Assembly: GCA_027319565.1 (NCBI GenBank)
Contig: DAHVNA010000003.1
Location: 1 to 64,000 of the forward strand
Reading direction: 5' to 3'
Length of the DNA: 64,000 nt
Origin: Elusimicrobiota bacterium
GTDB taxonomy: Bacteria > Elusimicrobiota > Elusimicrobia > UBA1565 > UBA9628
Both the position numbers and the translations under genes were made by a program. This document shows positions 19,070 to 36,394 of the stretch, piece after piece (position 1 is the stretch's first letter; every line of letters starts with the position of its first letter). A model generated the notes under the pieces. The model saw only the letters and a list, made by a program, of their open reading frames with translations. It ran no database searches and was not told the DNA's origin.

Positions 19070-19086
19070 TTGGCACTTTTGTTGCA
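19070..19086 (+). promoter_or_regulatory. sigma54 (-24/-12) promoter P1
   Basis: TTGGCACTTTTGTTGCA matches TGGCAC-N5-TTGC; ~40 nt upstream of the cytochrome c ATG. Confidence 0.85.
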
Positions 19087-19128
19087 AGTAGTTTTTTGCC
19101 GGGAATAAAGACTTAAGGAGATGCTCAA

Positions 19129-19659
19129 ATGAATACTAGAAAGACTTTCTGGATTAGCTTCGGAATCTCCATGATCGGGCTTATGCTTTTCCTATCCACC
19201 CCTCAAGCCGCCGATAAAATGGAAGAAGCCTTCCGAAACAGCGTATTTCCCAACGACTTTGGCCCCACCACTATCAATGTCTCTCATTATCCCAAGAAAA
19301 TGCAGGCCTACTACAAGGTATTTCTGAAAAAATGTTCAAAATGCCACAGCGTCGCGCGCCCCATCAATGCGCAATTCTTGGAGCTCACCCCTCAGGGCGA
19401 AAAAATCGCTAAAAAAGACGATCCCATCATCTTTAAGGACACCGATGTCTGGAAAGTCAGCCCGGTCATCTGGGACAAATACGTCCATAAAATGATGGCG
19501 AAACATGGAGCGGTCATCACCAAGAAAGAAGGGCACGAAATTTATGAGTTTCTGGTCTACGACTCCAAGGTGCGCAAAACCGGAGCCAAGACAAAGGAAT
19601 GGGAAAAGCAACGCGAGCGCCTGCTCAAAAATTTAGAAGAAATAACCGAAGGACTATAA
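19129..19659 (+). CDS. Exported monoheme cytochrome c
   Basis: Signal peptide, CSKCH, later W..YVHKMM (candidate Met ligand); AAGGAG SD. Confidence 0.8.
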   Translation: MNTRKTFWISFGISMIGLMLFLSTPQAADKMEEAFRNSVFPNDFGPTTINVSHYPKKMQAYYKVFLKKCSKCHSVARPINAQFLELTPQGEKIAKKDDPIIFKDTDVWKVSPVIWDKYVHKMMAKHGAVITKKEGHEIYEFLVYDSKVRKTGAKTKEWEKQRERLLKNLEEITEGL

Positions 19660-19674
19660 AAACAAGGAGGAGTT

Positions 19675-21093
19675 ATGAAATCGCGCGCGGTCGTAATCGT
19701 ATTAGGAAGTCTCCTGGCGGGATGGGCATCCAGCGCCAGGGCGGAGGTGCCGCCGGTCGGAAACGTCGTTCCCGACACGAGCACCTTCTTTAACGGCAAG
19801 CCGTTTGACGGAAACGGGGTTCAGCCATGGTATGACGGCGGAGCCGCTCTCATCGATACCGATAAACTGGACCTCAATATGTTCGGACGACTCCAAATGA
19901 ACGGAGTGGGCGAAATCGTCCCCGATCCAGTTAGGGCTCATCAGCGCGTTTACTCCTTCCTCCAAGAATCACGATTGGGAATGAGAGGAGACTTTGAAGG
20001 CTATAAGTTTGAAACCCAGCTCGCCTTGGGCGGCCAGGATATTGTTGAAAGCAATAATCCAAACGTGGCCTTTACGCTCCTAGACATGTCGGTTGATATT
20101 CCGCTTCCCAGCATTGGGAAAGACACCTCGCTTAAGGTCGGACAATTCCGCGTGCCTTACAGCCGCGAAAACCTCACCGACACGGGGTATATGCCGTTTT
20201 CAGAGCGCTCGATAGCCAGCGACGCATTCGGCAACGGCACCCGCGACTATGGATTAGCCCTACAAGATTATCGCGGAAAATTCGCCGGAACCCTGGCGGT
20301 GATGTCGGGAGCGGGAGAAGACGTGCCACAGCGTTATTTGCCGGAAAACTTCGGCATCCCAGAAATGGTTATGCGCGTGGGGTATAACGATGGGGTGGAT
20401 GAGGACATCTACCATGTCGTAGAAACCGACCTAGGGCTTAAACAAACCGAGAAAGCGGCTTATTTCAATGCGTTATTTAGCAAGGATACCCAGATTGGAC
20501 ACTCCACGGCATTAAACCTCAACCTCCCTTACCCCACCATGATGATCAGTCCCACATGGAACCCGTATATCGATGCCGGAGGCAGCCCAGCGGCAATGCA
20601 GATGGGCGATATTTTCGAGCTTGGAGGCGACGCCGTCATCCGAAAACCCCTTGCAAACGGGAACGCCGTATCGGGTGAAGCCGAAATCAATTGGGGCGGT
20701 TATCAAAATCTTTACGGCGAAATCCATATGGCCACCGCGCGTTTGCAAGGAAGCTACTTAATTCATCAAAAGTATGAGTGGGCGCTGCGATACGTGGCTA
20801 TGAATACAGGAAGCACGGTAGGTGACACGGGCTTTAAAGCCAGCGGAGATGCAGTCATCAACGAGATCACGCCTTCTTTCACTTGGTATATCAAGGGCCA
20901 AAACGTAAAATTCGTAACCGAGGCCCCAGTCTACTTGAATATGCCGGTGTTTAACAACACCGCGGCGGGCGGCATCGGCTCATATGTCATGGCCGATATG
21001 CCGTTTCAGGCCAGCGCCGGCAGCGGAGCGGGAAACACCACAACGCGTGACGTCATCCCTGAACTTCGGATGATGGTTCAATTCCTGTTCTAA
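19675..21093 (+). CDS. Outer-membrane beta-barrel porin (OprO/OprP-like)
   Basis: Signal peptide, LKVGQFRVPYSRE and FSERS...RDYG motifs, amphipathic strands, C-terminal QFLF. Confidence 0.78.
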   Translation: MKSRAVVIVLGSLLAGWASSARAEVPPVGNVVPDTSTFFNGKPFDGNGVQPWYDGGAALIDTDKLDLNMFGRLQMNGVGEIVPDPVRAHQRVYSFLQESRLGMRGDFEGYKFETQLALGGQDIVESNNPNVAFTLLDMSVDIPLPSIGKDTSLKVGQFRVPYSRENLTDTGYMPFSERSIASDAFGNGTRDYGLALQDYRGKFAGTLAVMSGAGEDVPQRYLPENFGIPEMVMRVGYNDGVDEDIYHVVETDLGLKQTEKAAYFNALFSKDTQIGHSTALNLNLPYPTMMISPTWNPYIDAGGSPAAMQMGDIFELGGDAVIRKPLANGNAVSGEAEINWGGYQNLYGEIHMATARLQGSYLIHQKYEWALRYVAMNTGSTVGDTGFKASGDAVINEITPSFTWYIKGQNVKFVTEAPVYLNMPVFNNTAAGGIGSYVMADMPFQASAGSGAGNTTTRDVIPELRMMVQFLF

Positions 21094-21111
21094 ATCTCGG
21101 CGCTCTCAGTT

Positions 21112-21145
21112 GAGAGGCGGGCGGAAACGCCCGCCTCTCTTTTTT
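21112..21145 (+). terminator. Intrinsic terminator after the porin
   Basis: GAGAGGCGGGCG-GAAA-CGCCCGCCTCTC perfect 12 bp stem plus TTTTTT. Confidence 0.92.
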
Positions 21146-21164
21146 ATATACGCTCAATCCGGTA

Positions 21165-21181
21165 TTGGCTGTTTTGTTGCT
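21165..21181 (+). promoter_or_regulatory. sigma54 (-24/-12) promoter P2
   Basis: TTGGCTGTTTTGTTGCT: GG-N10-GC right after the terminator and before the AGGAGG SD of yceI. Confidence 0.72.
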
Positions 21182-21207
21182 TGTTATTAATTCAGGAGGA
21201 ATTGGTT

Positions 21208-21855
21208 ATGAAAACAAAACGACAGACATTCGCTCTAAGCTTCTGCTTATTAGCCCTCAGTTCTTTTTCTTATGCGGCTTCAATTCCGATTGAGGCCTTG
21301 CCGCAGAGTCAAGTTTGGATATCGGGAAACTCAACCCTTCATCCCTTTATCATCAAAGCCTCGACCTTTAATATCCAAATGTCTATTGCCGCTTCCGGAA
21401 ATGGAGAGGCAAAAACGGCTGTCCTTAAAGGCTTGCCGGCCCAACTCCAGCTGACCATTCCCGTCAAGGGATTACGATCCGAATTTGAAGCCATGGACGA
21501 CAATACACAAAAGGCCATGAAAGCGAAAAAATACCCCACCATCGTATTTTCGCTTACGTCTTATTCCCTCTCCAATCTCAATGGGAAAGAGTCCATCGCC
21601 GCCCTAGGAACCCTCTCAATTTCCGGAGTGTCAAAGCCGATTACCCTTCACGGAAAAATCGCAATCTCAAAATCAAAAATCACCGTCACCGGTTCTCAGC
21701 CTATTTTGATGAAAGACTACGGAATCACGCCGCCGACAATGATGTTTGATACGATTAAGGTTGACAACAAGGTCGTCGTCCACTATCATTTAATCTTGAC
21801 TCAAGCGGAAAAGGCGGACTTGGGCGCAAGTCATTCATTGGCCGCGGGTTTATAA
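21208..21855 (+). CDS. YceI-family periplasmic lipid/polyisoprenoid-binding protein
   Basis: SGNSTLH, YPTIVF, GTLSISGVSKPI, MKDYGITPP; signal peptide. Confidence 0.85.
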   Translation: MKTKRQTFALSFCLLALSSFSYAASIPIEALPQSQVWISGNSTLHPFIIKASTFNIQMSIAASGNGEAKTAVLKGLPAQLQLTIPVKGLRSEFEAMDDNTQKAMKAKKYPTIVFSLTSYSLSNLNGKESIAALGTLSISGVSKPITLHGKIAISKSKITVTGSQPILMKDYGITPPTMMFDTIKVDNKVVVHYHLILTQAEKADLGASHSLAAGL

Positions 21856-21879
21856 ACCGTCCCATGAAAGGAGAAGATC

Positions 21880-22449
21880 GTGACGCAATTCAAGCGGGCA
21901 TCCATCGTGATGGTCTCTTGTCTATTGGCAATGGCTTTTTCCGCCTCGGCCTCGGGCCGAACAACGCGCGGTCTCTTTATCCACATCCGATCTCAAAAAG
22001 GGATATACTTCGTCAAAGGCGAATTCTATGTCCAGTCCTCGGTTGAAAATTCCTGGAAAGTTCTCACCGATTATGACCATATCGCCGATTTTGTCGGAAA
22101 CGTCGACTCAAGCACAATCCTGGAACAGAACCAATCCTCTCTTCTCATACGACAGAAAATTTCCGGGAAAGTTCTATTTATCAACAAAACATTTAGCCTC
22201 AAGCTTCTGATCCACGAGCGCCCTCGGCAGCTGATTTCCTTTACTGACATCTCCCACAAAAGCTTTTCAATCTATGAAGGCTCCTGGGAATTGTCCCCGT
22301 TCAAAGGCCAATCCAAAATCATCTATCGCCTCAAGGCCAAACCCAAGGGCTGGGCTCCATTGATTCTTGGCCAGCACGCCTTTAAATCGAACGCGCGGGC
22401 GCTTCTTGATGAAATTCGCTCTGAAATTCTTAGAAGATCAGCGGAATGA
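21880..22449 (+). CDS. SRPBCC/START (polyketide cyclase/CoQ-binding-like) protein with signal peptide
   Basis: WKVLTDYDHIADFV and YEGSWEL motifs. Confidence 0.78.
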   Translation: MTQFKRASIVMVSCLLAMAFSASASGRTTRGLFIHIRSQKGIYFVKGEFYVQSSVENSWKVLTDYDHIADFVGNVDSSTILEQNQSSLLIRQKISGKVLFINKTFSLKLLIHERPRQLISFTDISHKSFSIYEGSWELSPFKGQSKIIYRLKAKPKGWAPLILGQHAFKSNARALLDEIRSEILRRSAE

Positions 22450-23171
22450 AAAACATGGAAACAAAAAAAATTGAAAGCGAAGAAGAGCTGTCCAAAAGAA
22501 AAGAGGAATGGCGGCGCATGATCGCCCACGATCTGCGCGCTCCTCTCTCCAACATATCGGCGGTCCTTCAAGTCATTCGGGAGGTGTCCGGGACAAGGCC
22601 ATTAAGCGCGAAAGAAATCGAACTCATTGATATCAGCCTCCGTTCCGGAAAACGCATGATGGAACTTCTGGACCTATTTTTAGATATCGCCAAATTAGAC
22701 GAAGGGGTGATGCCGGTATCCAAAAAAGAAATACTTCTCTCCCCCCTGGTTCAGAGCGTCATCGAGGATGAAGTTTCCCTCGCCCGAGCCAAAAACATCT
22801 CTATTGAGGTATCCATCGGCGAAAGAGAAACCGTTTTCGCCGATGAAAATCTTCTGGAGAGAACCCTTCAGAATCTTCTTAATAACGCCCTTAAATTTAC
22901 CCCGCGCGGAGGGAAAATTTCCATCTCCTTGACGGATAAAGACAAGATATCCGTTCGAGACAACGGAATCGGGATTTCCCAGGACGGAATGAAAACCCTC
23001 TTTGACCGTTTCCACCAGGCCGAAGCCCGTCGGGAAGGCTTGATTCAAGGAAACGGCCTGGGACTCACCTTCTGCCGACAAGCCGTGCGCGCCATGGGAG
23101 GAGAAATCTACGTCCATTCGGAACTGGGCAAAGGAAGCGAGTTTACCATCAGCCTGCCGCCTCACCCTTAG
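22446..23171 (+). CDS. Histidine kinase core (HisKA + HATPase) with no input domain
   Basis: AHDLRAPL, NLLNNALKFT, DNGIGI, GNGLGL, GKGSEF. Confidence 0.9.
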   Translation: MKNMETKKIESEEELSKRKEEWRRMIAHDLRAPLSNISAVLQVIREVSGTRPLSAKEIELIDISLRSGKRMMELLDLFLDIAKLDEGVMPVSKKEILLSPLVQSVIEDEVSLARAKNISIEVSIGERETVFADENLLERTLQNLLNNALKFTPRGGKISISLTDKDKISVRDNGIGISQDGMKTLFDRFHQAEARREGLIQGNGLGLTFCRQAVRAMGGEIYVHSELGKGSEFTISLPPHP

Positions 23172-23610
23172 AGTCTTCCATCTCCACAAAAGCCCTTAAA
23201 ATGTCCATGGTCGACACAATGCCGACCAAGCGCTTATCCCTGGTAATGGGCAAGCGGTGAATTCGTCTGGCGAGCATCTGCCGAGCCAGATCCCCGACCG
23301 GAGTTTCCTCATCGGCCGAGAGAACCGCCGGGGTCATTAAATCAAAAACCGTCACCTCGTCTTTGACCCTTGAAACTGAATCAAAAAGGGGCATCACGTC
23401 GCGGTAAAAATCCAAGGCATCGTCTTTTTCAGACCGCGCTTGTTTTCTCACGATATCGGTCTGAGAGACGACCCCCATCAACGCCCCATGACTATCGACG
23501 ACGGGAACGCCCGTAATCTTGTGTTTGGTGAGAAGTTCCGACAACTCCTTGGCGGTCACGAGCGGCGAAACGGTGACGACATTTCTTCGCATAATGTCTT
23601 TTGCCTTCAT
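23149..23610 (-). CDS. Tandem CBS domain protein
   Basis: AKDIM, ITGVPVVD..G.LMGVVSQTDI, IHRLPI....LVGIVSTMDI. Confidence 0.9.
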   Translation of the reverse strand: MKAKDIMRRNVVTVSPLVTAKELSELLTKHKITGVPVVDSHGALMGVVSQTDIVRKQARSEKDDALDFYRDVMPLFDSVSRVKDEVTVFDLMTPAVLSADEETPVGDLARQMLARRIHRLPITRDKRLVGIVSTMDILRAFVEMEDSKGEAAG

Positions 23611-23623
23611 AAATTTCCCTTGT

Positions 23624-24133
23624 TCAAGAAATACTTTGCCCTTTGTCCCATTTTTTCTTAATAATCTTCTCGACCCCCTGGGTATTAGACTCTATGCGTC
23701 TCCCCATGGAGCGCCCCAAAGAACGGCTCATCGTCCGAGCGTAATGAGGCCAAAGGCGCTCTTCTTCCACTTTAAAGTGAGCGCGCAAAAGCGCGACCAA
23801 TTCCTTGGACCATTTTCGCAACCGGCTCAGCGGGCCTGGCCCCGGCTGAAGCGGGAGATTGCTAATTTGTTCGATTAGTTGCTTTAAATGAAGATGCTGC
23901 TCTTCAATCGCGTCTAAAATAACTGCGGCTCCGGGCTCTTTCAAATACGACTCTTTCTCAATGAGAGAATTTTCCATCTCTTCATGAATTTCCAAAATTG
24001 GAAGAAGAATAGCCAAGACTCCCCAAATCCGTCCCCATGCGCCGATTCCTTCAATCCGCACGGCGACTTCCAAGCGCTCAATAATTCTTTCCAAGGCGCG
24101 ATGCTCGGCTTTGACTTCCGTAAAAAAGTTCAT
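23624..24133 (-). CDS. Hemerythrin-like (HHE) domain protein
   Basis: EH, HEEME, QH and HFKVEE metal-ligand pattern. Confidence 0.75.
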   Translation of the reverse strand: MNFFTEVKAEHRALERIIERLEVAVRIEGIGAWGRIWGVLAILLPILEIHEEMENSLIEKESYLKEPGAAVILDAIEEQHLHLKQLIEQISNLPLQPGPGPLSRLRKWSKELVALLRAHFKVEEERLWPHYARTMSRSLGRSMGRRIESNTQGVEKIIKKKWDKGQSIS

Positions 24134-24149
24134 CTTAGCTCCAACGGCC

Positions 24150-25058
24150 TCAACTCTTTGACTTCTCCGAAGAAATTTCCGGAACCGCTAAAACCGAAGA
24201 TTCACTATAGCGAATCACCCTTTCCGCCGTCGTTCCCAAAATCATATCTTCCAAAAACCCGCGAGAGCGCGCGGCTAAAACGACGAGATCCGACTCCAGG
24301 GAAGCCTTGAGTATTTCATTGATCGGCTTTCCCCAAGCGACTTGGGCTTCGATTTTCTGCGGCCTTTGAGAGTCTGGCAGGCGTTTGAGGCCACTCAAGA
24401 CCGTTTTTTTGATATGGGATAAGTCTCCGGAAAATTCCACGCTCGGAGTGGCCGCCACATGAAAAATATTCAATCCCGCTCCCATGGATTTCGCGCAAGC
24501 AGCGGCGAACTCAAGCCCGAAAACGGAACGACTGTTTAAGTCATAAGGGGCTAGTATCCGCTCGGGCTTTTTAACGGGCTTTTTCGCGATTAAAACCGGA
24601 ACCCGGCTTTTTCGGACCACCGCCTCCGCCACCGAGGAATGAAACGCCCTGGCCAAACCCAAGCGCGACTGGGTGCCAAGAACGATTAAATCAAAGCGAT
24701 TTGAATGAGCCCAACGGACAATTTCCTCGATTGGATCTCCGGGAAGAGAAACAATTCTCTCTTTAATCCCTAAATTTTTCCGCAAGCGCTCAACGGTTTC
24801 TTCGGAGGTTTTCGCCGTCAGCTGCGGATCTGCGTATCCAAACTCGCTATTGCCAGCCCAAAGCCAGGGTTGGACATAAACCCCTTCTATCTTTGCCTTC
24901 CAAATCTTCGAGAAAATCAAGCCCTCTTCCCAAGCGATAGCGGAAGCCTGAGAGGGGTCCAAAGCGACCAAAATGCGCTTAGGCGGACAATGCTGCTTGA
25001 TCTGGGCGTTTTCCGCCGATTTTTCCGCAATCCCTGGGTCCGTTAAATGGTCTTTCAT
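24150..25058 (-). CDS. Tandem universal stress protein (two Usp domains)
   Basis: RILVALD, DLIVLGT, SVAEAVVR, ILGTTAERVIR; AGGAG SD before ATG 25058. Confidence 0.9.
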   Translation of the reverse strand: MKDHLTDPGIAEKSAENAQIKQHCPPKRILVALDPSQASAIAWEEGLIFSKIWKAKIEGVYVQPWLWAGNSEFGYADPQLTAKTSEETVERLRKNLGIKERIVSLPGDPIEEIVRWAHSNRFDLIVLGTQSRLGLARAFHSSVAEAVVRKSRVPVLIAKKPVKKPERILAPYDLNSRSVFGLEFAAACAKSMGAGLNIFHVAATPSVEFSGDLSHIKKTVLSGLKRLPDSQRPQKIEAQVAWGKPINEILKASLESDLVVLAARSRGFLEDMILGTTAERVIRYSESSVLAVPEISSEKSKS

Positions 25059-25134: not shown

Positions 25135-25155
25135 TTCAGCGCAGGAAAATGGAGC

Positions 25156-25184: not shown

Positions 25185-26141
25185 ATGGAAACAACGCCTT
25201 GGTCGATTGTTCTTGCCGCCGGAGAAGGAAGTCGGTTAAGCTCGGCCATCAAAAACTGGTTCGGGCGGGAATGTCCGAAACAGTTTTGCGCTTTAGGGGG
25301 CTCTCAAACGATGGTTGAAAAGACCATCAGCCGCGCGCTTGACGTCAGTTCTCTCAATCAAGTCCTGACTATCGTGGGCAAAAGCCAATTGTCATTTATC
25401 CCCCCCCACGCCAAACTTGGGCGCGTGATTAAACAACCCCGAAATTTGGGAACTGGGATCGGAATCCTTTACTCCCTTGCCCATATCCTGCCCCGAAACC
25501 CGGAAGCCATCGTATCTATTCTTCCCTCCGATCATTTCGTCGCGCCCAAGCGCGTTTTTTCTAAATTTCTGCGTTTGGCGGTTCGCTTCGTGAAAGATAA
25601 CCCGCAAAATCCCCTCTTATTGGCCGCGCAGGCGACAAGCCCCGAAACCGATTATGGATGGATAGAGACGGGAAATTCCATCAATGATTCTTCTATTCTT
25701 TCCGTGTCCCGGTTTAGAGAAAAGCCCCCCATGGAAGAAGCCTCTAGGCTGTGGAACCGCGGAGCTCTATGGAACACCATGATTACCGTCTCTAAAGCCA
25801 AAACGCTGTGGGAATTGGCTCGGGCGGTGAAACCAGATTTAATTCGCCATTTTGAGGAAATATTTTCTTCCCTCGATTCGGGAATTTCCGAAGAAGAAGC
25901 GGAAAATTTTTACCAGCGCATCGCGCCGCTGGATTTTTCAAAAGACATACTTGAAGTCAACGCCCATCAAATCAACGTCCTTCCGATGAGAGGGGTTGTC
26001 TGGAGCGATTGGGGAAGGCCAGAGCGGATACTGGAAATCATTGGCCAGTTTGGACTCCCTTCTCCAATGTCGACAGGGGGCTCATATGAACTTAATCGAA
26101 CATTTAGAGAAAGACCACGCCGAGTTAAGAGCTTTGCTTAA
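25185..26141 (+). CDS. Mannose-1-phosphate guanylyltransferase-like nucleotidyltransferase (no isomerase domain)
   Basis: IVLAAGEGSRL, PKQF, PSDH, YGWIE, FREKP, WSDWG. Confidence 0.82.
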   Translation: METTPWSIVLAAGEGSRLSSAIKNWFGRECPKQFCALGGSQTMVEKTISRALDVSSLNQVLTIVGKSQLSFIPPHAKLGRVIKQPRNLGTGIGILYSLAHILPRNPEAIVSILPSDHFVAPKRVFSKFLRLAVRFVKDNPQNPLLLAAQATSPETDYGWIETGNSINDSSILSVSRFREKPPMEEASRLWNRGALWNTMITVSKAKTLWELARAVKPDLIRHFEEIFSSLDSGISEEEAENFYQRIAPLDFSKDILEVNAHQINVLPMRGVVWSDWGRPERILEIIGQFGLPSPMSTGGSYELNRTFRERPRRVKSFA

Positions 26142-26613
26142 GGCGGCGGAAAATATCCTGGGGGAACCGCAAGGGGTAGGACTCGATGATCGCCTCTCAA
26201 CGGACAGAAAGTTATTGGTTGAAGCCTTGAAAAAATTTCTTATCGCGTTTGAAAGACACGAAGAAGCGGAAAGCCGCGTCATTGAACGCCTCTTACGGCT
26301 TGAAAAAATCTTGTCGGCCCGGCCTTTAGACGCATCTTCCAAAATCAGCGCGCCCTTGCGCAAATCTATTTCGGAAGGCCACCGTTCGCTTAAATCCATC
26401 ACCCACCTTCTAGGCGCCATCGCCTCATCCGACGATTCGGATCAAATCTACTCCATCCGACATGTTGTCTCTTCTCTTAAAGACGAACTAAGCCGCCATT
26501 TGGATTACGAAGAACATGAAATATTTCCTAAGCTGAAAGACGCTTTAAGCGCGGAAACTCTCGACAAAATGACGCGCTGGGCAAAAAATGCGACAAAATC
26601 TCAAAAAGTTTAA
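26086..26613 (+). CDS. Hemerythrin-like (HHE) domain protein
   Basis: DH, HEEAE, GH, HLDYEEHEIFP pattern. Confidence 0.78.
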   Translation: MNLIEHLEKDHAELRALLKAAENILGEPQGVGLDDRLSTDRKLLVEALKKFLIAFERHEEAESRVIERLLRLEKILSARPLDASSKISAPLRKSISEGHRSLKSITHLLGAIASSDDSDQIYSIRHVVSSLKDELSRHLDYEEHEIFPKLKDALSAETLDKMTRWAKNATKSQKV

Positions 26614-26632
26614 AATGGTAAGATTTCTCCAT

Positions 26633-28006
26633 ATGAGATTTCCAAACAATTTGTTTTATTTATTTGTTTTCGCACTGACTTTCCCCTCTCTAGCGCATTC
26701 TCAATATCCGACAAAAATTTCGCTCACGTTAAGCGAGGTTGAAAAAAACACCCTCCATCATTCCCATGCGGTGGCGGCGGCCCAAGCGCAAGGCCAAGCG
26801 GCCCAACACGGGGCCAATGTCCAATATTCTTTTGTGATGCCGCGTCTGACCTTAGAAGGGAATTGGGGATATGCAACCGCTATTCCGGATGTCCAATTGG
26901 GCGCGCTTAAAGTCCCGTTTGGGACCCATGTCAATACCGCGATAGGCCCCGAGCTTGATTACACCCTATGGGATGAAGGCTCTCTCTATCATTATTGGAA
27001 AAGCCAGCTGGCCTTGGCCCATTCCGCTCAAGATCAAGTCGATCTCCAAAAAAGAGAAGTCATCCTCGCGGCCAGGCTCGCTTATTTTCAAGCGCAACTC
27101 GCCCTGGAACAAACAAAACTGCTGGCTGATTCCCTATCTTTATCGCTGGCTCAATATCACGACATCCACACCCGGTATAGGGGCGGAACTTCGTCAAAAA
27201 TCGACGCTTTGACCTCGCATCAAGACGTTCTTCTGCGCCAAAGCGAGTTTCGGCAGGCACAAGCCGATCTCGCTTCTTCTCTTAGAGAAATTTTTACCCT
27301 TATGGGAACCCCTCAATCTTTTGATTTAACGCGCCCAGTTTCAATCTCTACCTATAAACACATGCCCCGGGAAGTGAAACCGGCCACCGCGGTTGTAGAA
27401 CTCGATCCGCCCACCCAAGAAGAATTGCCGCTTTTTAGATCTTCTCCGGACGCCGCCCATCCGGAAATACAGGCTTTCGCGATGCAAGAAGAATCGTCAA
27501 AGCTCGCGGCTAAAGCCGACGCGGCGCAAGCTTTGCCTAAAATTCAGCTTTCGGCCCGCTCCTATTACACCTACCCTGATGTCGCAGTCGACATAAACCC
27601 GACCTACCTCTATCAAAATACCGTCGGAGTCATGGCCAGCGTCCCTCTTTTTGAAGCCGGAAAAAGCGCGGAGAAATCAAAACAGGATAAGGAAATGGCG
27701 GAAGCGGCGCGCCAACAAAAAGAAGAAGCCTACGAAAATCTGGAGCGCGACTATCTCAAAGCCCGCGATCAACTCGCGCAATTAAAAGACCAGAACAAAA
27801 TAGACGCTGAAACCACCGCCGAGACTTCCGAACTCGCGCGTCTGGTCTACTCCGCTTATAAAGCCGGACACATTACGATTGTGGAGGTTCAAGACGCGGA
27901 TTTAAGGGAACTTGAAGCCGCTATTCAAGCCGCGCGCACGCAAGCTCAGACCTCCATTCAAATCGCGACTTTAGATTACATCGCCGGAGAAAAAAATGAA
28001 AAATAA
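26633..28006 (+). CDS. TolC-family outer membrane efflux protein
   Basis: Signal peptide, two PxLxL repeats (PRLTL, PKIQL), helical repeats; upstream of HlyD and ABC genes. Confidence 0.88.
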   Translation: MRFPNNLFYLFVFALTFPSLAHSQYPTKISLTLSEVEKNTLHHSHAVAAAQAQGQAAQHGANVQYSFVMPRLTLEGNWGYATAIPDVQLGALKVPFGTHVNTAIGPELDYTLWDEGSLYHYWKSQLALAHSAQDQVDLQKREVILAARLAYFQAQLALEQTKLLADSLSLSLAQYHDIHTRYRGGTSSKIDALTSHQDVLLRQSEFRQAQADLASSLREIFTLMGTPQSFDLTRPVSISTYKHMPREVKPATAVVELDPPTQEELPLFRSSPDAAHPEIQAFAMQEESSKLAAKADAAQALPKIQLSARSYYTYPDVAVDINPTYLYQNTVGVMASVPLFEAGKSAEKSKQDKEMAEAARQQKEEAYENLERDYLKARDQLAQLKDQNKIDAETTAETSELARLVYSAYKAGHITIVEVQDADLRELEAAIQAARTQAQTSIQIATLDYIAGEKNEK

Positions 28007-28724: not shown

Positions 28725-28725
28725 G

Positions 28726-29457
28726 ATGGACAATCTCTCTATCGAATTGCGAAGCATCAGCAAAAGGCTTGGCCCTAATCAAGCCTTAAACAAGATTTCC
28801 CTCTCTTTTAAGTCTTCCACCATCCATGGACTCATCGGCCCCGATGGAGCCGGGAAGACCACCTTAATGCGCATTCTCATGGGGCTGCTTCACCCCGATG
28901 AGGGAGAACTGACATTTAAGAGCTCTGGTCAAAGCTATTCTCAAAAAGAAGTTCGGTTCGCGATGGCTTATATGCCTCAAAGTCAAAGCCTTTATGGAGA
29001 CCTCTCCGTTTCCGAACATCTGGATTTCTTTCGAGACCTCTATGGACTTGAGGAAAAAGATTATCAGAGCCGCCGGCAAGAGCTTTTACAGATCACTCGC
29101 ATGGCCCCATTCGCCGATCGCCCTGCGGGGCATCTTTCCGGAGGAATGTATAAAAAGTTGGGCCTTATGTGCGCGCTTCTTCCCTCTCCCCGGATTCTTC
29201 TTTTAGACGAACCGACGACTGGAGTCGACCCCATCAGTCGGCGCGATTTCTGGGATCTCCTTTACCGCTTAGTCGAAGAAAGCCATCTGCTCATCCTGAC
29301 CTCGACATCCTACATGGACGAAGCCGCCCGGTGCGGGAACGTGCACCTAATAGAATCCGGAAAAAAGATTGCCTCCGGAACCCCCAGAGAAGTGCTCGCC
29401 CAAGAACAGGTCAAGACTTTTGAGGAATTATTTATCCGGCACGCGAAAATGCCATGA
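28726..29457 (+). CDS. ABC ATP-binding protein (YbhF N-half-like)
   Basis: GPDGAGKTT, LSGGM, LDEPTTGVDP. Confidence 0.92.
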   Translation: MDNLSIELRSISKRLGPNQALNKISLSFKSSTIHGLIGPDGAGKTTLMRILMGLLHPDEGELTFKSSGQSYSQKEVRFAMAYMPQSQSLYGDLSVSEHLDFFRDLYGLEEKDYQSRRQELLQITRMAPFADRPAGHLSGGMYKKLGLMCALLPSPRILLLDEPTTGVDPISRRDFWDLLYRLVEESHLLILTSTSYMDEAARCGNVHLIESGKKIASGTPREVLAQEQVKTFEELFIRHAKMP

Positions 29458-30377
29458 ATGGATACGCGGTCGAAGTCGATCATTTAATCGTTCGCTTCGG
29501 AGATTTTACCGCCGTCAATAATGTGTCCTTTGCGGTTAAGCCAGGAGAGATTTTCGGTTTTTTGGGGGCCAACGGCGCGGGAAAAACGACCACGATTCGC
29601 GTTCTCTGCGGGCTTTTAAAGCCGACTTCGGGAGAAATTAAAATCGCGGGACTGAGTCCCCATGACGGGCTTAAGCCCATCAAGAAAAAAGTGGGATACA
29701 TGTCTCAACGCTTTACGCTTTATAACGATTTAAGCGTGGAGGAAAATATCGCCTTTGCCGCCAGCCTTCGAAAACTAGATCCATCCAAAATCAAGGAGCG
29801 CGCGCAAACCTTGTTTAAGGAAATAGGCTTTGACTCTTCTCCCGGCATGCTGGTTCAAGACCTCTCCGGCGGAATTAAACAGCGCCTGGCCTTGGCCGTC
29901 TCGATGATTCATGATCCGGACATTCTTTTTCTTGATGAGCCTACGGCTGGCGTCTCTCCGGCCGCCAGAGTCGCCTTTTGGGATTTAATTCGCGAAATCG
30001 CCTCAAAAGGCAAAACGATATTTGTCACGACCCATTATATGGACGAAGCCGAACAATGCGGCAGAATCAGCCTGATGAGAAACGGAGAAATCATCGCGTT
30101 GGACTCTCCGGAGAATCTTAAATCGCAAGCATTCCCCGAGCCCCTCTACGAAGTGGAAAGCCCGGATCCCACCAACAAAGATTGGAAGAAAAATTTATTG
30201 AGCCGAAAAGAAATTAAAAATTTAGAGCCGCACGGGCTTTTTTGGCACTTTCAACTAAGGCCCGGGCCCGACGCCAATTTAGCGAACTTGTCCAGAGAAA
30301 TCAATTCCGAGGCGCGGCAAATAAGCCCTTCCCTGGAAGATGTGTTCATTCGTTTTATCGAGGGTTCGCGTGAATAA
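29454..30377 (+). CDS. ABC ATP-binding protein (YbhF C-half-like)
   Basis: GANGAGKTT, LSGG, LDEPTAGV, TTHYMDEAE. Confidence 0.92.
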   Translation: MNGYAVEVDHLIVRFGDFTAVNNVSFAVKPGEIFGFLGANGAGKTTTIRVLCGLLKPTSGEIKIAGLSPHDGLKPIKKKVGYMSQRFTLYNDLSVEENIAFAASLRKLDPSKIKERAQTLFKEIGFDSSPGMLVQDLSGGIKQRLALAVSMIHDPDILFLDEPTAGVSPAARVAFWDLIREIASKGKTIFVTTHYMDEAEQCGRISLMRNGEIIALDSPENLKSQAFPEPLYEVESPDPTNKDWKKNLLSRKEIKNLEPHGLFWHFQLRPGPDANLANLSREINSEARQISPSLEDVFIRFIEGSRE

Positions 30378-31500
30378 AAAGAGCGGCTTTAATTTTTCCA
30401 GGGCCTACTCGATAGCCAAAAAGGAATTTCGCCACCTCTTGAGAGATCCCTTCACCCTGACGCTCGCGCTTGGGCTGCCGATCGCGCTTCTCATCTTTTT
30501 TGGTTTTGCAATCAATTATGACATCAAGAATATTCATATCGGAGTCTTTGACGGAGACTTGTCTATCGCTTCGCGAAATCTCGTGGATGTTTTTCAAAGC
30601 TCCGGATATTTTAAGACCGACCCTCTTCCTTTAGACCAAGATCCTCTTCAAAGACTCGATACCGAGAAAGAAAAAGCGATTCTGATCATCAACCCGAAAT
30701 TCGGACGGCATCTGGCGGCTGGAAAAACCGAAAGCGCCCAAATCGTCCTAGACGGCGCCGACAATCTCGTCTCGGGAATAATCAGCGAGTATCTATCGGG
30801 CATTGAAGATTCTTTCAATTCTCAACTTCCGCAAAAAGGAATCCCTCCGCCCAAAGTTCAGGAAAAAGTTCGCTATCTGTTCAACCCGGAGCTTAACAGC
30901 CACTGGTTTTTTGTTCCGGGCCTTATCGCGGTCATCAATGGCCTTATCTCGATTTTACTGACCGCCTTAACAGTCGCCCGCGAATGGGAAAATGGATCGA
31001 TGGAAATGCTGCTGTCGACCCCGGTTCAGCCCTCTGAAATTATTTTGGGAAAATTAACCCCCTATGCCGTTTTGGGAATCGGGGGAGTTTTGCTTGTCTT
31101 TATAGCCGCCCGCTTCATCTTCGGCGTGCCGATGAACGGCAGTTATCTATTATTGTCCTTTTCAACTCTGGCTTTTCTGTCCGCGACCTTGGCTCAAGGA
31201 CTTTTGATTTCGGTTCTGACTCGCCAACAACAATTGGCCATGCAAATCGCGATTACCACCGGACTACTCCCCGCCTTTCTTCTCTCCGGCTTTATTTTCC
31301 CGGTTCAGAACATGCCAATTTTCTTTCGATATTTGACCTCCATTCTTTCTGTTCGATGGTTTATGCAAATACTGCGTCCGGTTTTTTTACGCGGCTCCAA
31401 TTTTCTAGACCTCCAAACCGCCATTGCGATGCTGTCTTTATTGACAGCCTTGCTCATTATCGGCTCCATTAAGGGCTTTAAGCGAGATCTTGAGCCATGA
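30370..31500 (+). CDS. ABC-2 permease (YbhS-like)
   Basis: KEFRHLLRD, FNPEL, AREWENGSME, LLSGFIFP. Confidence 0.9.
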   Translation: MNKKSGFNFSRAYSIAKKEFRHLLRDPFTLTLALGLPIALLIFFGFAINYDIKNIHIGVFDGDLSIASRNLVDVFQSSGYFKTDPLPLDQDPLQRLDTEKEKAILIINPKFGRHLAAGKTESAQIVLDGADNLVSGIISEYLSGIEDSFNSQLPQKGIPPPKVQEKVRYLFNPELNSHWFFVPGLIAVINGLISILLTALTVAREWENGSMEMLLSTPVQPSEIILGKLTPYAVLGIGGVLLVFIAARFIFGVPMNGSYLLLSFSTLAFLSATLAQGLLISVLTRQQQLAMQIAITTGLLPAFLLSGFIFPVQNMPIFFRYLTSILSVRWFMQILRPVFLRGSNFLDLQTAIAMLSLLTALLIIGSIKGFKRDLEP

Positions 31501-32576
31501 ATTTCACCTTAATTGGATTTTTAAAAAAAGAATTCGCTCAAGGCTTAAGAGACCGCCGGATGAGAGTTCTTATCTTCATTTTGCCAAGCTTGCAACTCAT
31601 TGTCTTCGGTCTGGCCATTCGCACCGAGATGAGAAATATTCGCCTTGCCGTCTTTGGCAAACCCGATCCTCTCTTGCGGGAAATAACGACTCGCGCGGAG
31701 GCCTCGGGATGGTTTATCCCCGCCAAGGTTCGCGGAAACAACCCTTATCAGTGGGCCAAATCCGGGGAGGCGGAAGCGATTTTAGTCGCCCCCGAAAACG
31801 GGCTTGGCAGAGACGCCAAGCGCGGAACGGCGAACCTTCAAATTCTCATCGACGCCTCCGACAGCGTCAGGGCGCGCATCATCAATGCCTATCTGTCTTC
31901 GGTTATCCGGCAAGCCGACAAAGACCCCGCGCCTCAGTTTAGCTTCTCAATCCGAACTCTTTATAATCCGGAATTAAAAACCGCCCACTTTATGGTTCCT
32001 TCTATTTCCGGGCTGATTCTCAGCATCCTGACCATTATCTTGACCAGCATGTCTCTCGCCCGCGAAAAAGAAATTGGAACCATGGAAACCATTCTATCGG
32101 CTCCTATTGAAGGATGGGAAATACTTTTAGGCAAGACCATCCCTTTTGTCGTCATGGGAATCATCGTCTTTACGCTGGTCATTTCCGCCGGGATACTGGT
32201 CTTTGGCGTGCCCGAGCGCGGCCCGATATGGATGCTGGGACTCGCAGGCCTTGTCTTTGTCATCACCAGCGTGACCATCGGGCTTTTTATTTCGACAATC
32301 ACCCAAAATCAGCAACAGGCGATGATGGCAAGTTTTATCTTTCTTTTTCCGGCCATGCAATTATCCGGCATCGCATTTCCGGTCGACAATTTGCCGCCTC
32401 TAATCGGCTGGGTCAGCTATTTCGATCCGCTGAAATATTTCGTGACCTTGATGCGAAACATCATGCTCAAGGGCGGAAACTCCGTGGTATTTTGGGAAAA
32501 CTTGGCGGCGATAGCCTTGATCGGAACATTGGTCGCCATTTTCGCCGTTGAGCGCTTCCACGACACCCTCAACTAA
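31497..32576 (+). CDS. ABC-2 permease (YbhR-like)
   Basis: KEFAQGLRD, YNPEL, AREKEIGTME. Confidence 0.9.
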   Translation: MNFTLIGFLKKEFAQGLRDRRMRVLIFILPSLQLIVFGLAIRTEMRNIRLAVFGKPDPLLREITTRAEASGWFIPAKVRGNNPYQWAKSGEAEAILVAPENGLGRDAKRGTANLQILIDASDSVRARIINAYLSSVIRQADKDPAPQFSFSIRTLYNPELKTAHFMVPSISGLILSILTIILTSMSLAREKEIGTMETILSAPIEGWEILLGKTIPFVVMGIIVFTLVISAGILVFGVPERGPIWMLGLAGLVFVITSVTIGLFISTITQNQQQAMMASFIFLFPAMQLSGIAFPVDNLPPLIGWVSYFDPLKYFVTLMRNIMLKGGNSVVFWENLAAIALIGTLVAIFAVERFHDTLN

Positions 32577-33664
32577 ACAGTCTTTGTAGACTTTAACTTC
32601 TCGATTTGATGGCGCACGGAATTGACGGTTCGCCGGGAAACGGAAATACCGCGTTCCATTTTTAATTTTGAGGCAATTTCAGCGTCGGTCATGGCCGGGA
32701 AATCCCTTATCCAAATTTCAACGAGCTCGCGCAAAACCCGGCGCCTTCCAGGCAGGAGAGAAATCAGCGGAACCTCTTTCTCCCAGGGAAGTCGCACCGA
32801 ACGATGAGAAAGCGACCGACTAATGGTCGAGGGTGATAAATCTAAACGCCGCGCCAAGCCTCTGAGACTTATCGGGCGCAGATTTTCGACCCGGCGAGAG
32901 GACAAATACTCTATTTGAATTTTCGATAAGGATTCAAAAACCCGATACAGGGCGCTTTGCCTTAAATTCAGCGCTTCGATTCGCTTAATTAATGAGGGAA
33001 GCCGCGCCTTTTCCGAAGGAGACAAAGCTGTCGTTTTCCAGCCGTCAATGAGCTCATAACGAATGTGGTAGAGACCTCTCGCCCAATAAGGGGCGTAAAA
33101 CTCAAAACGAACTTCCCCCTCCAAAACTTTTAAATGCGCGACACAGGCCGCTGGGCGGTCTGGGGCCTTGGATGGAGCCGATGTTGGAACTTCAAACTCG
33201 GAACGAATCTCGACATCCAGCAGAAAATCATGGATCGCAAGAACTTCTTCTTTTGAAAAGCCCACCCGTTTTGATATTTCCTCAAGAGTGATTCCCTGAC
33301 CCCTTAAAAAATATTTCTCGAAATTTTCGCGGCCCATTTTCCGGATCGCCGCCACCGCCAAGTCTTGTTCCACCGCCAATTTTTCGACAGGGACTCGTTC
33401 TCCCATTCCTGCGGTGGTCCTCTCGTCAATTTCATAAAAAGAGGAGTGCAGTTCTCCGGAGGGCCACTTTTGCCTTTGAAACGCGGGCAAAATCTTTCCA
33501 TCTCCGAAATAGAGCTTGCGAAAAAGATCGTCTTTCTCTATTTTCGCCACTTCAGAGGCGAAATCCTTTTCCGGCATCTCAATTAAATCCGCCATCCGCA
33601 TGCGCCCCATAATAGAAAGGCGCTGCTGGGTCTCTAAAGTAAGTCCTTGCTCTATTTTCGCCAT
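32573..33664 (-). CDS. rpoN: Atypical short sigma54 (RpoN-like) factor
   Basis: Region-I-like N-terminus, HTH LRPISLRGLARRLDLSPSTISR, C-terminal TDAEI...GISVSRRTVNSVR (RpoN-box variant); next to an NtrBC-type pair. Confidence 0.8.
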   Translation of the reverse strand: MAKIEQGLTLETQQRLSIMGRMRMADLIEMPEKDFASEVAKIEKDDLFRKLYFGDGKILPAFQRQKWPSGELHSSFYEIDERTTAGMGERVPVEKLAVEQDLAVAAIRKMGRENFEKYFLRGQGITLEEISKRVGFSKEEVLAIHDFLLDVEIRSEFEVPTSAPSKAPDRPAACVAHLKVLEGEVRFEFYAPYWARGLYHIRYELIDGWKTTALSPSEKARLPSLIKRIEALNLRQSALYRVFESLSKIQIEYLSSRRVENLRPISLRGLARRLDLSPSTISRSLSHRSVRLPWEKEVPLISLLPGRRRVLRELVEIWIRDFPAMTDAEIASKLKMERGISVSRRTVNSVRHQIEKLKSTKTV

Positions 33665-33729
33665 AGGGATATCAATTAAAAGTTTAGCAGATGTTTTTAA
33701 CGTTTACAGTGTTTATAATTTGCTAAAAG

Positions 33730-35187
33730 ATGAGAAAGACTATTTCAATGAAAGCCCCCTCTTTGTTTAAAGATTGCGCCGATGAGCTTATCGAATTTCT
33801 AGATCACGCTCCCGATTTTGTCATGCTTAGAAATCCGGATGGGACCATTCTCATGGCCAACGAAACTCTCTGTGAAAGACTCGGAGTCCCGCGGGAAAAA
33901 CTCATTGGCCGGTCTATTTATGATTTCTATATAGCCCCCAAGCAAAAACCCATTAGCCAAAAATATACGGAAACGCTCTTGCGCCAAGGGACGAATCAGA
34001 TTACGCTTCTCATGCGCGACAAAAACGGCTCTCCGGTCGAAGTCGAAGTCCGGGGTTGCCTGGTAGTTCACAAAGGGAAAAAAGTTCTTTTTGGCATCGG
34101 ACGAGAAATTGGGCGTTCTGAAAGAGATCAGAGATTGGCGGAGATATTGAGAACCGGATTTAGGGCTTCGCATGATATCATGTTCTACACCGGCCCCAAC
34201 GGAATGATTTTAGACGTCAACGACGCCTTTACCCATTATTATGGCTACACCCGAGAAGAGGCAATAGGCAGAACTCCCGGCTTTCTGCGCTCTCAGCATT
34301 CCAGCGATGAATTCTACCGGTATATGTGGGAAAAGATATTGGCTCCCGCGCACGGATTTTGGAGAGGAGAAATCATCAACCGGACCAAGGATGGACGAGA
34401 AATCCCGCTTATCCTAACCATTTCAGCCGTGCGGGACGGCTCCGACAAAATAATTGGCTTTATTTCCAGCGCCACCGATATCCACAAGCACAGGGAACTG
34501 GAAGAGAAGATTGCCCAAACCGAAGCCTTGGCCGATCTGGGAGAAATGGCGGCCGCCGTCGCGCATGAAATTAGAAACCCCCTCAGCTCGATTTCAATGG
34601 CTTCAAAACGACTCTTGCAGCGCGATTTAAAATTATCCGACAAGGAACCCATCGTCAAAATCCTCGAGAGCGAAAGCCAACGCCTCAATAAGATTCTCAA
34701 CGAACTCCTCTTATTCGCGCGGCCGCGAACGCTCAAAAGGAAATCCTCCGATCTGAACTCCCTGATAAAAACGACCGTTGATCTTATAACCCAAAATCAA
34801 AATCTGTCCTCTAATATCAAATTGGCGCTTTCTCTCGACCCGAACCTCTATCCATTCTTGTTTGACTCCGACCAGATTCTACAGGTTTTATGGAATATGA
34901 TTTTAAACGCCATCCAATCGATGGAAGGCACAGGAACCCTGACCATCCGTTCCGGCCACTCCGAAAACTTCGCCTATTTCGCGATCAGCGATACCGGCCG
35001 GGGCATTTCAGAAGAAGAAAAAGCGAAAATCTTTAAGCCCTTTCACTCCACCAAAAGCCAAGGAGTGGGATTGGGGCTCCCCACCGCGAAAAGAATCGTA
35101 GTCGCCCATGGAGGAAGAATTGAGGTCGACACAAGAATGGGGCAAGGGACCGTATTTACCGTCTGGCTTCCCTACTTGGAGAGTTAA
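33730..35187 (+). CDS. Cytoplasmic PAS-PAS sensor histidine kinase (NtrB-like)
   Basis: Two PAS domains, AHEIRNPL, NAIQSM, DTGRGI, GVGLGL; no TM segment. Confidence 0.92.
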   Translation: MRKTISMKAPSLFKDCADELIEFLDHAPDFVMLRNPDGTILMANETLCERLGVPREKLIGRSIYDFYIAPKQKPISQKYTETLLRQGTNQITLLMRDKNGSPVEVEVRGCLVVHKGKKVLFGIGREIGRSERDQRLAEILRTGFRASHDIMFYTGPNGMILDVNDAFTHYYGYTREEAIGRTPGFLRSQHSSDEFYRYMWEKILAPAHGFWRGEIINRTKDGREIPLILTISAVRDGSDKIIGFISSATDIHKHRELEEKIAQTEALADLGEMAAAVAHEIRNPLSSISMASKRLLQRDLKLSDKEPIVKILESESQRLNKILNELLLFARPRTLKRKSSDLNSLIKTTVDLITQNQNLSSNIKLALSLDPNLYPFLFDSDQILQVLWNMILNAIQSMEGTGTLTIRSGHSENFAYFAISDTGRGISEEEKAKIFKPFHSTKSQGVGLGLPTAKRIVVAHGGRIEVDTRMGQGTVFTVWLPYLES

Positions 35188-35188
35188 A

Positions 35189-36394
35189 TTGAGAAAACCC
35201 GCTATTCTCTTGGTTGAAGACGATATTTCTCTTAATACGCTCACCACGCTTGAGCTAAGAAACCGCGGCTACGAAGTGGAAACGGCTAAATCGGGCCAAG
35301 AGGGATGCGAAAAAATAAGCCAAAACCCCGACATCGTCATCACGGATCTTAAGCTCGGCGACATGGATGGGATGGATGTCCTGAGCCGGGTTAAGAAATA
35401 TGATCCCAGGATAGAAGTCATCGTCGTCACGGGACACGGTTCCATTGACAGCGCGGTCAAGGCTATCAAGGCCGGCGCTTTTGATTATCTCACGAAACCC
35501 GTCGACTCCGAAGAATTGGAACTGACCATCAAAAAAACCCTAGAACATCAAAAATTAATCGCCGAAGTGGAGAATCTCCGCTCTGAAATTCGAGACAAAT
35601 ATAGCTTTAGCGGAATCGTCTACTCTAGCCCCAAGATTAAAAACATACTCGAAATGGTCAACAAAGTCGCCAAAACCGAGGCCACTGTTTTAATTCTAGG
35701 CGAATCAGGAACCGGCAAGGAGTTAATCGCCCATGCAATTCACGAGCAAAGCCCCCGACGCCACGGCTCTTTTGTAGCCATCAATTGCGGAGCCTTGCCC
35801 GAAGGGCTGCTTGAAAGCGAGCTTTTCGGCCACGTCAAGGGCTCTTTTACGGGAGCCGATAGAAACAAAAGGGGGCTTTTTGAAGAGGCCTGTGAAGGCA
35901 CCTTGTTTTTAGATGAGATTAGCGAGACAACGCCCGCTCTTCAAGTCAAACTCCTGCGGGCGCTGCAAGAAGGAGAAATCCGGCGCGTTGGAGACAATCA
36001 TCCGATCAAGGTTTCCGGCCGACTCATCGCGGCCTCAAACAAGGATTTGGAACAACTGGTGGAAAGCGGGAAATTTAGAGACGATCTTTATTATCGCCTT
36101 AAGGTTTTTCCGATTGAAATTCCGCCTCTCAGAGAGCGCCCCGAGGATATTCTGCCTCTGGCCGAACACTTCTTAAGAAAAGCGCAAAAGAAGATATCGG
36201 GAAGCGCCAAACGCTTTTCTCCGGAAGCGGCCGCAGCTCTCAAAGCCTATTCTTGGCCCGGGAACGTCCGCGAGCTTGAGCATACCGTTGAGCGAATATT
36301 AATTCTCGCCTCCCAAGCCGAGATAAAACTGGAAGATGTTCCTCCCGAGATTCGCGCCTTACGAAAAAAAGCTTCGCTAAAACAGAAAAATTGA
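35189..36394 (+). CDS. sigma54-dependent response regulator (REC + AAA+), no C-terminal HTH
   Basis: ILLVEDD, ITDL, GESGTGKE, ESELFGH, GSFTGA, WPGNVREL; protein ends soon after the AAA+ domain. Confidence 0.92.
   Translation: MRKPAILLVEDDISLNTLTTLELRNRGYEVETAKSGQEGCEKISQNPDIVITDLKLGDMDGMDVLSRVKKYDPRIEVIVVTGHGSIDSAVKAIKAGAFDYLTKPVDSEELELTIKKTLEHQKLIAEVENLRSEIRDKYSFSGIVYSSPKIKNILEMVNKVAKTEATVLILGESGTGKELIAHAIHEQSPRRHGSFVAINCGALPEGLLESELFGHVKGSFTGADRNKRGLFEEACEGTLFLDEISETTPALQVKLLRALQEGEIRRVGDNHPIKVSGRLIAASNKDLEQLVESGKFRDDLYYRLKVFPIEIPPLRERPEDILPLAEHFLRKAQKKISGSAKRFSPEAAAALKAYSWPGNVRELEHTVERILILASQAEIKLEDVPPEIRALRKKASLKQKN

Follow-up and report, generated by a model that had tools for sequence, protein, structure and literature searches.

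Segment 19,070–36,394 of the DNA stretch analysed here is probably a regulon with its genes clustered: a short sigma-54 specific to the lineage, a PAS histidine kinase of the flavin adenine dinucleotide (FAD) type and an activator without a helix-turn-helix (HTH) would drive low-oxygen or redox stress genes. The stretch (hereafter the window) comprises 64,000 nucleotides, positions 1 to 64,000 of contig DAHVNA010000003.1 (C45 in our numbering), from an Elusimicrobiota genome of 2.03 Mb and 91.65% completeness (GCA_027319565.1, hereafter G000). Comparisons drew on 301 Elusimicrobiota genomes (G-numbers), including two further genomes of the same genus (G152 and G190), and on loci from relatives (L-numbers). 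An earlier note, made from the letters of the window, had proposed a dedicated alternative sigma-54 circuit for a low-oxygen/redox module; comparative evidence supports this core inference, but the circuit does not stand beside a canonical rpoN.

Four −24/−12 sites, all of the form GG-N6-TGTTGC, carry this reading. P1 (19070..19087, plus strand; GG 19072-3, GC 19084-5) lies 43 nt before the start of a cytochrome c gene and is conserved in L007 and L091, and P2 (21165..21182, plus strand; GG 21167-8, GC 21179-80) lies directly after a terminator-like hairpin, 27 nt before a YceI start. P3 (25117..25134, minus strand; GG 25132-1, GC 25120-19) and P4 (25156..25173, plus strand; GG 25158-9, GC 25170-1) stand back-to-back, 21 nt apart. 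P3 lies 60 nt before the start of a universal stress protein (USP) gene, and its core is kept in all four aligned relatives. P4, the weakest and least conserved of the four, has an ATG 13 nt past its GC, and its transcript is likely leaderless. A scoring matrix built from 40 unique sites in other genera ranked P2 first (21.8 bits), P1 second (19.3 bits), P3 21st (12.7 bits) and P4 29th (12.2 bits) among 145 genome matches of at least 10 bits, so that the four GG-N10-GC sites which the earlier note had placed at promoter-like positions proved to be real. The block contained five matches scoring 12 bits or more, including one coding match, compared with 0–2 for twenty column-shuffled matrices. 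The GG-N6-TGTTGC scan that the earlier note had suggested gave 27 occurrences genome-wide, with 4 in the block against 0.23 expected, for a pattern that was itself derived from these sites. A motif match at 28340 was set aside as lying inside hlyD, and a fifth window site at 48525 (minus strand) was rejected as the coding end of a dps-like gene.

Could these sites match by chance, or be operators for some unrelated factor that binds palindromes, such as FNR or an NtrC-like enhancer? The bare GG-N10-GC pattern was at background (155 seen versus 165 expected), TGGCAC-N5-TTGC with three mismatches was not enriched (380 versus 410 expected), and across 26 genomes YGG-N6-TGTTGC had roughly the same genome-wide frequency as its reversed control. 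Against this explanation stand the local enrichment of the sites, their exact spacing and asymmetry, and their co-orientation with genes; no FNR-type box (TTGA-N6-TCAA) was present in the four intergenic regions scanned (0 of 4); we regard it as extremely unlikely. No IHF-type site was seen at the three promoters examined.

Independent motif evidence came from the relatives. Unseeded expectation maximisation (EM) was run on 93 regions upstream of orthologues from 30 out-of-genus loci, 29 of these regions being those before the sigma gene; it recovered tGGCcg...tgTTGC in 5 of the 6 best runs. The held-out set of 10 stretches (155,217 bases, none used in training) contained 39 sites, compared with 1.9 ± 1.8 (maximum 9) for 200 column shuffles, and the count fell to 1–3 when the spacer was altered by 1–2 nt. 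L087 and L088 were excluded from this count, having been chosen after motif matches had been seen; with them, there were 48 sites in 185,217 bases. Before 79 homology-verified genes (L087 and L088 included), 27 sites were co-oriented and 9 opposite, with 8 of the 9 opposite sites at divergent pairs. The first long-frame ATG fell 11–17 nt past the GC at 41 of 175 unique sites, versus 18 at 0–10 nt, and 39 of the 41 short-distance sites were without a Shine-Dalgarno match. This ATG peak fits leaderless transcripts beginning at the sigma-54 start point and suggests that leaderless sigma-54 transcripts are frequent in the clade. The clade promoter consensus was TGGCCG-TWWYGTTGC, whereas the canonical sigma-54 consensus is TGGCACG-N4-TTGC. 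From the sites, their spacing and their orientation, the compact sigma would very probably recognise TGG-N6-TGTTGC, with promoter opening about 12 nt past the GC. Three metatranscriptome runs yielded two matches of 37–38 bases, which carry no information on expression.

The compact sigma (363 aa; 32573..33664, minus strand) was the only sigma-54-like gene in G000, with no second one found by Pfam, six paralogue queries or a six-frame hidden Markov model search. Its partner was likewise the only true activator found, so the second canonical rpoN and further activators for which the earlier note had left room were not seen in G000. The DNA-binding domain matched PF04552 at 46.9 bits (cut-off 22.8), and the TIGR02395 equivalog model scored 51.5 bits, below its cut-off of 277.35. 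The Pfam AID (PF00309) and core-binding domain (CBD, PF04963) models matched neither the window protein nor any of the 20 family members tested; of the Pfam models, all of these proteins matched the DNA-binding one alone. In a PDB sequence search, the sigma profile had sigma-54 proteins as its 23 best matches. An AlphaFold2 (AF2) model with a predicted local distance difference test (pLDDT) score of 86.6 returned only sigma-54 chains among the matches shown at E ≤ 0.001 and gave a sigma-54 alignment of 225 residues that runs from region I into the RpoN domain (Z 13.1, root-mean-square deviation 7.0). Sequence alignment of region I to E. coli was non-significant, and the structural alignment started at residue 14 versus 12. 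About 110 residues stand in place of region II and the CBD; residues 88–166, folded alone, gave no Foldseek match at E ≤ 0.001 (the best wide match, Z 5.8, was to an unrelated protein) and no significant sigma-54 sequence match; hhalign gave E 0.087 where the second half of the CBD would lie.

The RpoN box reads SRRTVNSVR, compared with the canonical ARRTVAKYR: RRTV and the final R are kept, AKY is replaced by NSV, and the protein does not pass the box test. Both box arginines on which −24 recognition depends in E. coli (PMC12096077) are retained. An apparent equivalent of R336, which enforces activator dependence (PMC7057263), is also retained, with numbering inferred from a 20-residue offset. 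The AKY position reads N[AS][VA] in the 29-row starred clade to which this sigma belongs (three labels mis-parsed), and the three residues after RRTV vary widely over 150 representatives (AKY in 9, 20 unparsed). The protein is a sigma-54 relative that falls outside strict RpoN membership on the box and full-length tests.

Short sigma-54 genes occurred in 96 of the 301 genomes, with up to 4 matches each; the phylum's short form has about 360 aa, and its members are mostly annotated as hypothetical. Canonical RpoN exceeded the TIGR02395 cut-off in one genome (G111), where the 461-aa gene L095:2160-3545 lies on a 19.8 kb contig. Activators, scored for at most six candidates per genome, were found in 91 of the 301 genomes and were absent from the same two large families as the short sigma. 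A search of 50%-identity representatives gave 312 clusters at E ≤ 1e-30; ten were looked up, and the two with a taxon name were Elusimicrobiota. We also observed short sigma-54 proteins with a long C-terminal extension that has no Pfam match (P0112, 914 aa; P0129, 839 aa), two short sigma-54 genes in tandem (L074:3054-5250, G273) and two copies of the low-oxygen clade in G291 (C46 and C5).

It might be argued that this protein is a sigma-54-derived DNA binder and not a sigma factor, occupying the sites (for example as a repressor that the ATPase would lift) while sigma-70 uses an overlapping extended −10 element. No core-binding domain is recognisable by Pfam, and TGCTA at many self-sites overlaps a TGnTAnnnT-like element. 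However, the peak of ATGs at 11–17 nt suits sigma-54 start geometry, none of the four target sites in the window ends in TGCTA, and flagellar and amtB/PII loci have the short form beside TGGCA-type sites although canonical RpoN is so rare in the phylum. We consider this alternative quite improbable.

The activator (35189..36394, plus strand, TTG start) combines a receiver (PF00072) with an NtrC-type AAA+ domain (PF00158) bearing GSFTGA; serine at position 2 of GAFTGA is tolerated (PMC3162934). It ends 46 residues past WPGN with no HTH_8 match, as in all four genus relatives. HTH presence was counted within the 26-row orthologue clade, outgroup rows being left out: 17 orthologues have an HTH, and the 9 without it fall in three groups, although the tree does not force more than one loss. 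The HTH is also lost in L044 and L048, lineages that keep the self-site of the sigma gene. A link between HTH loss and sole-activator status was rejected, given that G152, G190 and G291 have two activators and no HTH, whereas G264, G300, G265 and G283 keep the HTH with one activator. EM upstream of 89 sites from HTH-bearing genomes and 30 from HTH-less genomes, run with no formal control, gave diffuse motifs only and no enhancer. Promoter pairs are often back-to-back, 2–21 nt apart, which leaves little room for enhancers. The simplest reading is that the activator would act from solution without enhancers, like FlgR and CtcC (PMC3162934). G152 and G190 each carry a second sigma/activator pair, about 30% identical; since an HTH-less activator there lies beside this second pair, specificity would need sigma-activator or sigma-promoter matching.

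Regulator genes outside the genus carry sites of their own. A second site faces the kinase-activator operon in 25 out-of-genus loci, head-to-head with the sigma self-site (L009–L076), and its −13 position is not G (TTCC in 19, TTTC in 4, TTAC in 2). None of the five genus loci has it. In the genus, the sigma/kinase spacer (33665..33729 in the window) keeps only inverted TGCTA elements, as seen by alignment, and no GG-N10-GC site precedes the regulators. Changes in the −12 region can reportedly alter activator dependence. The TTCC-variant site is possibly a weak, leaky or repressive promoter.

To examine how far the regulon extends, we scored matches of at least 11 bits across the genome. Only 15 of 78 lay outside gene interiors, 4 of these being the block sites, and, of the other 11, five are followed by some open frame; for this reason the regulon in the assembled genome appears to be essentially this block. 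G190 has the targets in the same order and keeps all four sites (13.0–20.7 bits), but with fabF directly after the permease and the regulator triple on another contig. Across the family, gene order is shuffled and the sites travel with the genes, so the synteny comparison suggested by the earlier note showed sites staying with their targets while order changed and regulators could move. By this comparison, the block behaves as a regulon and not as a frozen cassette. The description "self-contained" thus holds for the clustered arrangement in the window, but clustering is not a requirement, given the relocated regulators of G190.

The kinase gene (33730..35187, plus strand), divergent from the rpoN-like gene, encodes a cytoplasmic PAS-PAS histidine kinase. 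PAS2 is its conserved domain, and many orthologous kinases have PAS2 alone. Its best PDB match was 3EWK (E 7.7e-16), which we take to be MmoS, with NifL (2GJ3) and Aer (8DIK) further down. The FAD-PAS determinant, a Trp in the F-alpha region (PMC10468136), was present in 38 of 38 aligned PAS2 rows, and no LOV cysteine was seen in the PAS2 alignments. On balance, we expect PAS2 to hold FAD and read the redox state of the cell. By two-component logic and gene pairing, the kinase would then phosphorylate the receiver of the adjacent activator. PAS2 shares its similarity and the conserved Trp with MmoS and NifL (PMC10468136); unlike in those proteins, the PAS is here fused to a classic HisKA kinase and paired with a receiver-type activator, and FAD binding is a prediction. 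A second kinase of HisKA and HATPase domains by Pfam (22446..23171, plus strand) is sensor-less in the genus. Its out-of-genus orthologues (L018, L021, L043, L044, L046, L047, L048, L076, L079 and L081) have a Cys-rich N-terminal PAS-like domain (9 of 11 orthologues by regular expression, 11 of 11 by eye), which resembles the Fe-S PAS of NreB and is a possible Fe-S oxygen sensor. Elsewhere this kinase often occurs with a stand-alone receiver gene having its own site.

All of the genes named in the earlier note were present as claimed in the open reading frame list, translations and Pfam matches. Features that the note did not name are the sensor-less kinase, a TolC/HlyD/ABC-2 exporter, the missing HTH and, in this genus, the lack of a GG-N10-GC site before the regulators. 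Behind P1 lie a monohaem cytochrome c with a signal peptide-like N-terminus and CxxCH (19129..19659, plus strand; weak Pfam/NCBIfam matches only, although the family is conserved in relatives) and a Porin_O_P-like porin (19675..21093, plus strand; PF07396). P2 precedes a YceI-like protein (21208..21855, plus strand; PF04264), an SRPBCC/polyketide cyclase-like protein (21880..22449, plus strand; PF03364, PF10604) and the sensor-less kinase. P3 faces, on the minus strand, a tandem USP (24150..25058; PF00582 twice), hemerythrin-like (HHE) protein 1 (23624..24133; PF01814, with ligands by alignment) and a CBS-pair protein (23149..23610; PF00571 twice). P4 precedes, on the plus strand, a sugar-phosphate nucleotidyltransferase resembling the ManC N-terminus (25185..26141; PF00483, with TIGR01479 far under its cut-off), HHE protein 2 (26086..26613; PF01814) and an exporter of TolC, HlyD, two ABC ATPases and two ABC-2 permeases (26588..32576; Pfam/NCBIfam matches). 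Because starts and stops overlap, the exporter genes are likely co-transcribed from P4; in L007, the block lacks the ABC part of the exporter. In G152, the USP gene has a second, partial copy about 12 kb from the block, and this copy carries the same promoter site (L007:1305-1832).

The motif also stands before other genes in relatives: HemA, radical SAM enzymes, Rrf2, a cyclic nucleotide (cNMP)-domain protein, Hsp20, a phosphoribosyltransferase, a ScdA_N protein, phosphoketolase, a POR subunit, malic enzyme, a dimethyl sulfoxide (DMSO)-reductase-family enzyme and CRP/FixK-like genes. Judged by gene content, the outputs (USP, CBS, di-iron HHE, cytochrome c/porin/YceI and exporter) would probably aid survival of oxygen shortage. 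A different cue acting on the same circuit, namely nitric oxide, oxidative Fe-S stress, or energy limitation and stationary phase, is less likely, though it keeps an appreciable chance. Both hemerythrin-like proteins carry the H/HxxxE/H/HxxxE set, which is distinct from the oxygen-carrier motif; one of them weakly matches the RIC repair model, the relatives' sites precede Rrf2 together with the ScdA_N protein, and USP, CBS and Hsp20 are general stress proteins. Against other cues, the DMSO-reductase-family enzyme, POR subunit, phosphoketolase, HemA and CRP/FixK-like genes of the relatives match published microoxic sets (PMC6515984, PMC12071387, PMC11841059). The target sets share members with microoxic regulons described in the literature (PMC6515984, PMC12071387). 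Two haem-copper oxidase subunits I are encoded in G000; about 8 kb from one of them we observed a CRP-family protein with an N-terminal CxxC-x5-C (C15:49593 and C15:40060).

Several points weigh against the low-oxygen regulon reading. The relatives and their sites are not independent, owing to homology, and the short distances themselves partly account for the absence of Shine-Dalgarno matches. For the sigma factor, binding to the core polymerase is a prediction set against a missing CBD match, the box tyrosine is valine, and in E. coli a 461/462 double substitution left zero activity (PMC2715252). For the signal, the targets in G000 itself include no respiratory enzyme, and the module need not be the main oxygen sensor given the FNR-like CxxC-x5-C protein elsewhere in the genome. 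Finally, three elements have disappeared in the genus, namely the sigma self-site, the HTH and the sensor of the second kinase, and −24 halves drift within it (AG for GG at two G190 sites), all of which could mean relaxation.

Accordingly we weighed whether the circuit is ancestral and, in this genus, relaxed or decaying to constitutive low-level expression. The sigma self-site is present in 32 of 36 out-of-genus loci (many of these being training sites, and L050 doubtful) versus 0 of 5 genus loci, and the orthologue of the stand-alone receiver was not found in G000. On the other side, all regulators in the genus have intact, conserved reading frames (sigma 77–92% identical, activator 82–91%), target sites are conserved against diverging flanks even where regulators moved away, and HTH loss also occurs in lineages keeping the self-site. 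Decay of the circuit is therefore improbable in our judgement, and we retain the reading of a working low-oxygen/redox regulon as the probable one.

The closest known system is NmpRSTU of Myxococcus xanthus, a sigma-54-dependent low-oxygen regulon with CBS, USP, hemerythrin and HemN, in which an autoregulated NtrC-type activator and sigma-54 drive CBS, USP, hemerythrin and haem synthesis genes under low oxygen (PMC11841059). It uses a haem protoglobin phosphorelay, a palindromic NmpR enhancer and seven dispersed promoters, and no dedicated sigma is described for it (PMC11841059). In contrast, the present block has a private compact sigma, a predicted FAD-type PAS kinase, no HTH and clustered targets, and a Pfam scan found no protoglobin or hybrid kinase in it. 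DosR, Anr, FixK2 and Burkholderia lxa share USP, CBS, phosphoketolase, ABC exporter and electron-transfer genes, lxa also being a physical cluster, but they are run by DosR or CRP/FNR-type factors and not by a dedicated sigma-54 (PMC12071387, PMC6515984). Canonical RpoN (E. coli, 477 aa, and Aquifex; PDB 8F1J, 5UI5) shares with the window sigma the structurally alignable long helix-HTH and RpoN domain (region I may align as well), the box RR, GG-N10-GC and a GAFTGA-type ATPase partner, while the window protein differs in its length, its unmatched stretch in place of the CBD, its change of AKY to N[AS]V and its shifted consensus. Several RpoN paralogues also serve different modules in Rhodobacter sphaeroides (RpoN1/RpoN2; via PMC12316311); those are recognised RpoN proteins, whereas here all are of the short form, mostly beside their own kinase/activator and with a highly variable box. 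FlgR of Helicobacter and CtcC of Chlamydia likewise consist of receiver and AAA+ without a DNA-binding domain (via PMC3162934), but in G152 and G190 the HTH-less activator has a second sigma/activator pair beside it, and most orthologues keep the HTH.

The earlier note had called the block its best candidate for an undescribed system. The concept is known from NmpRSTU (PMC11841059), so the function is not new, and paralogue specialisation and HTH-less activators are also known; the machinery is the unusual part. What is new is the mapped regulon, the shifted consensus TGGCCG...YGTTGC, the HTH-less activator and the conserved TTCC-variant site. No paper on the compact form was found in the Elusimicrobiota sigma-54 literature, in a search whose coverage did not extend to most subscription journals and supplements.

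Two neighbourhoods outside the block were also recorded. Just upstream, window positions 10127-18009 hold a TPR protein, an ExbB/ExbD/ExbD/TonB set and an extracytoplasmic function (ECF) sigma with a zinc-finger anti-sigma. At 47398-49502 and 52257-55596 (minus strand and adjacent), Fur/PerR-like, Dps-like and di-haem cytochrome c peroxidase-like genes are followed by HemA and cytochrome c biogenesis genes (by eye), forming an oxidative-stress/haem cluster 11–19 kb from the block with no intergenic sites.

Beyond the low-oxygen clade, short sigma-54 genes were found at flagellar loci (L059, L061, L065 and L068), at amtB/PII loci (L066 and L069), with a TraG-like gene nearby (L035, L037 and L038) and near rpsF/ssb, with no activator seen within 20 kb (L049, L058 and L060). 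The low-oxygen, flagellar and amtB/PII loci fall in separate clades with different RpoN boxes. Those of the flagellar and amtB clades are mostly K-Y or x-Y boxes beside TGGCA[C/T] sites, which were hand-picked and are only suggestive, and EM run de novo on 83 regions in the vicinity of other paralogues failed to converge. RpoN box and promoter may covary. We tentatively propose, as a possibility with less than even chances, that specificity moved into the sigma factor: each module (low oxygen, flagella, ammonium) would have its own compact sigma-54 with a diversified box, a promoter dialect, a halved or replaced CBD for docking to polymerase and an enhancer-free activator, and the TTCC-variant site would set the basal level of the loop. 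If true, these would be natural, mutually orthogonal sigma-54 systems.

Sigma-54 is regarded as a single conserved protein, with an RpoN box that hardly varies and a core-binding domain. A survey that uses three Pfam domains (PMC12316311) misses the short form. Box changes that shift −24 recognition have been engineered (PMC12096077), and the case described here is possibly a natural one. Together with about 175 predicted promoter sites, the sigma, the kinase and the HTH-less activator form a ready test set, and they open questions about the minimal size of a sigma-54, how box changes relate to −24 recognition, and how an enhancer-less activator achieves specificity where another sigma-54 system is present. 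They also provide a predicted oxygen-response regulon for a phylum that is mostly uncultured.

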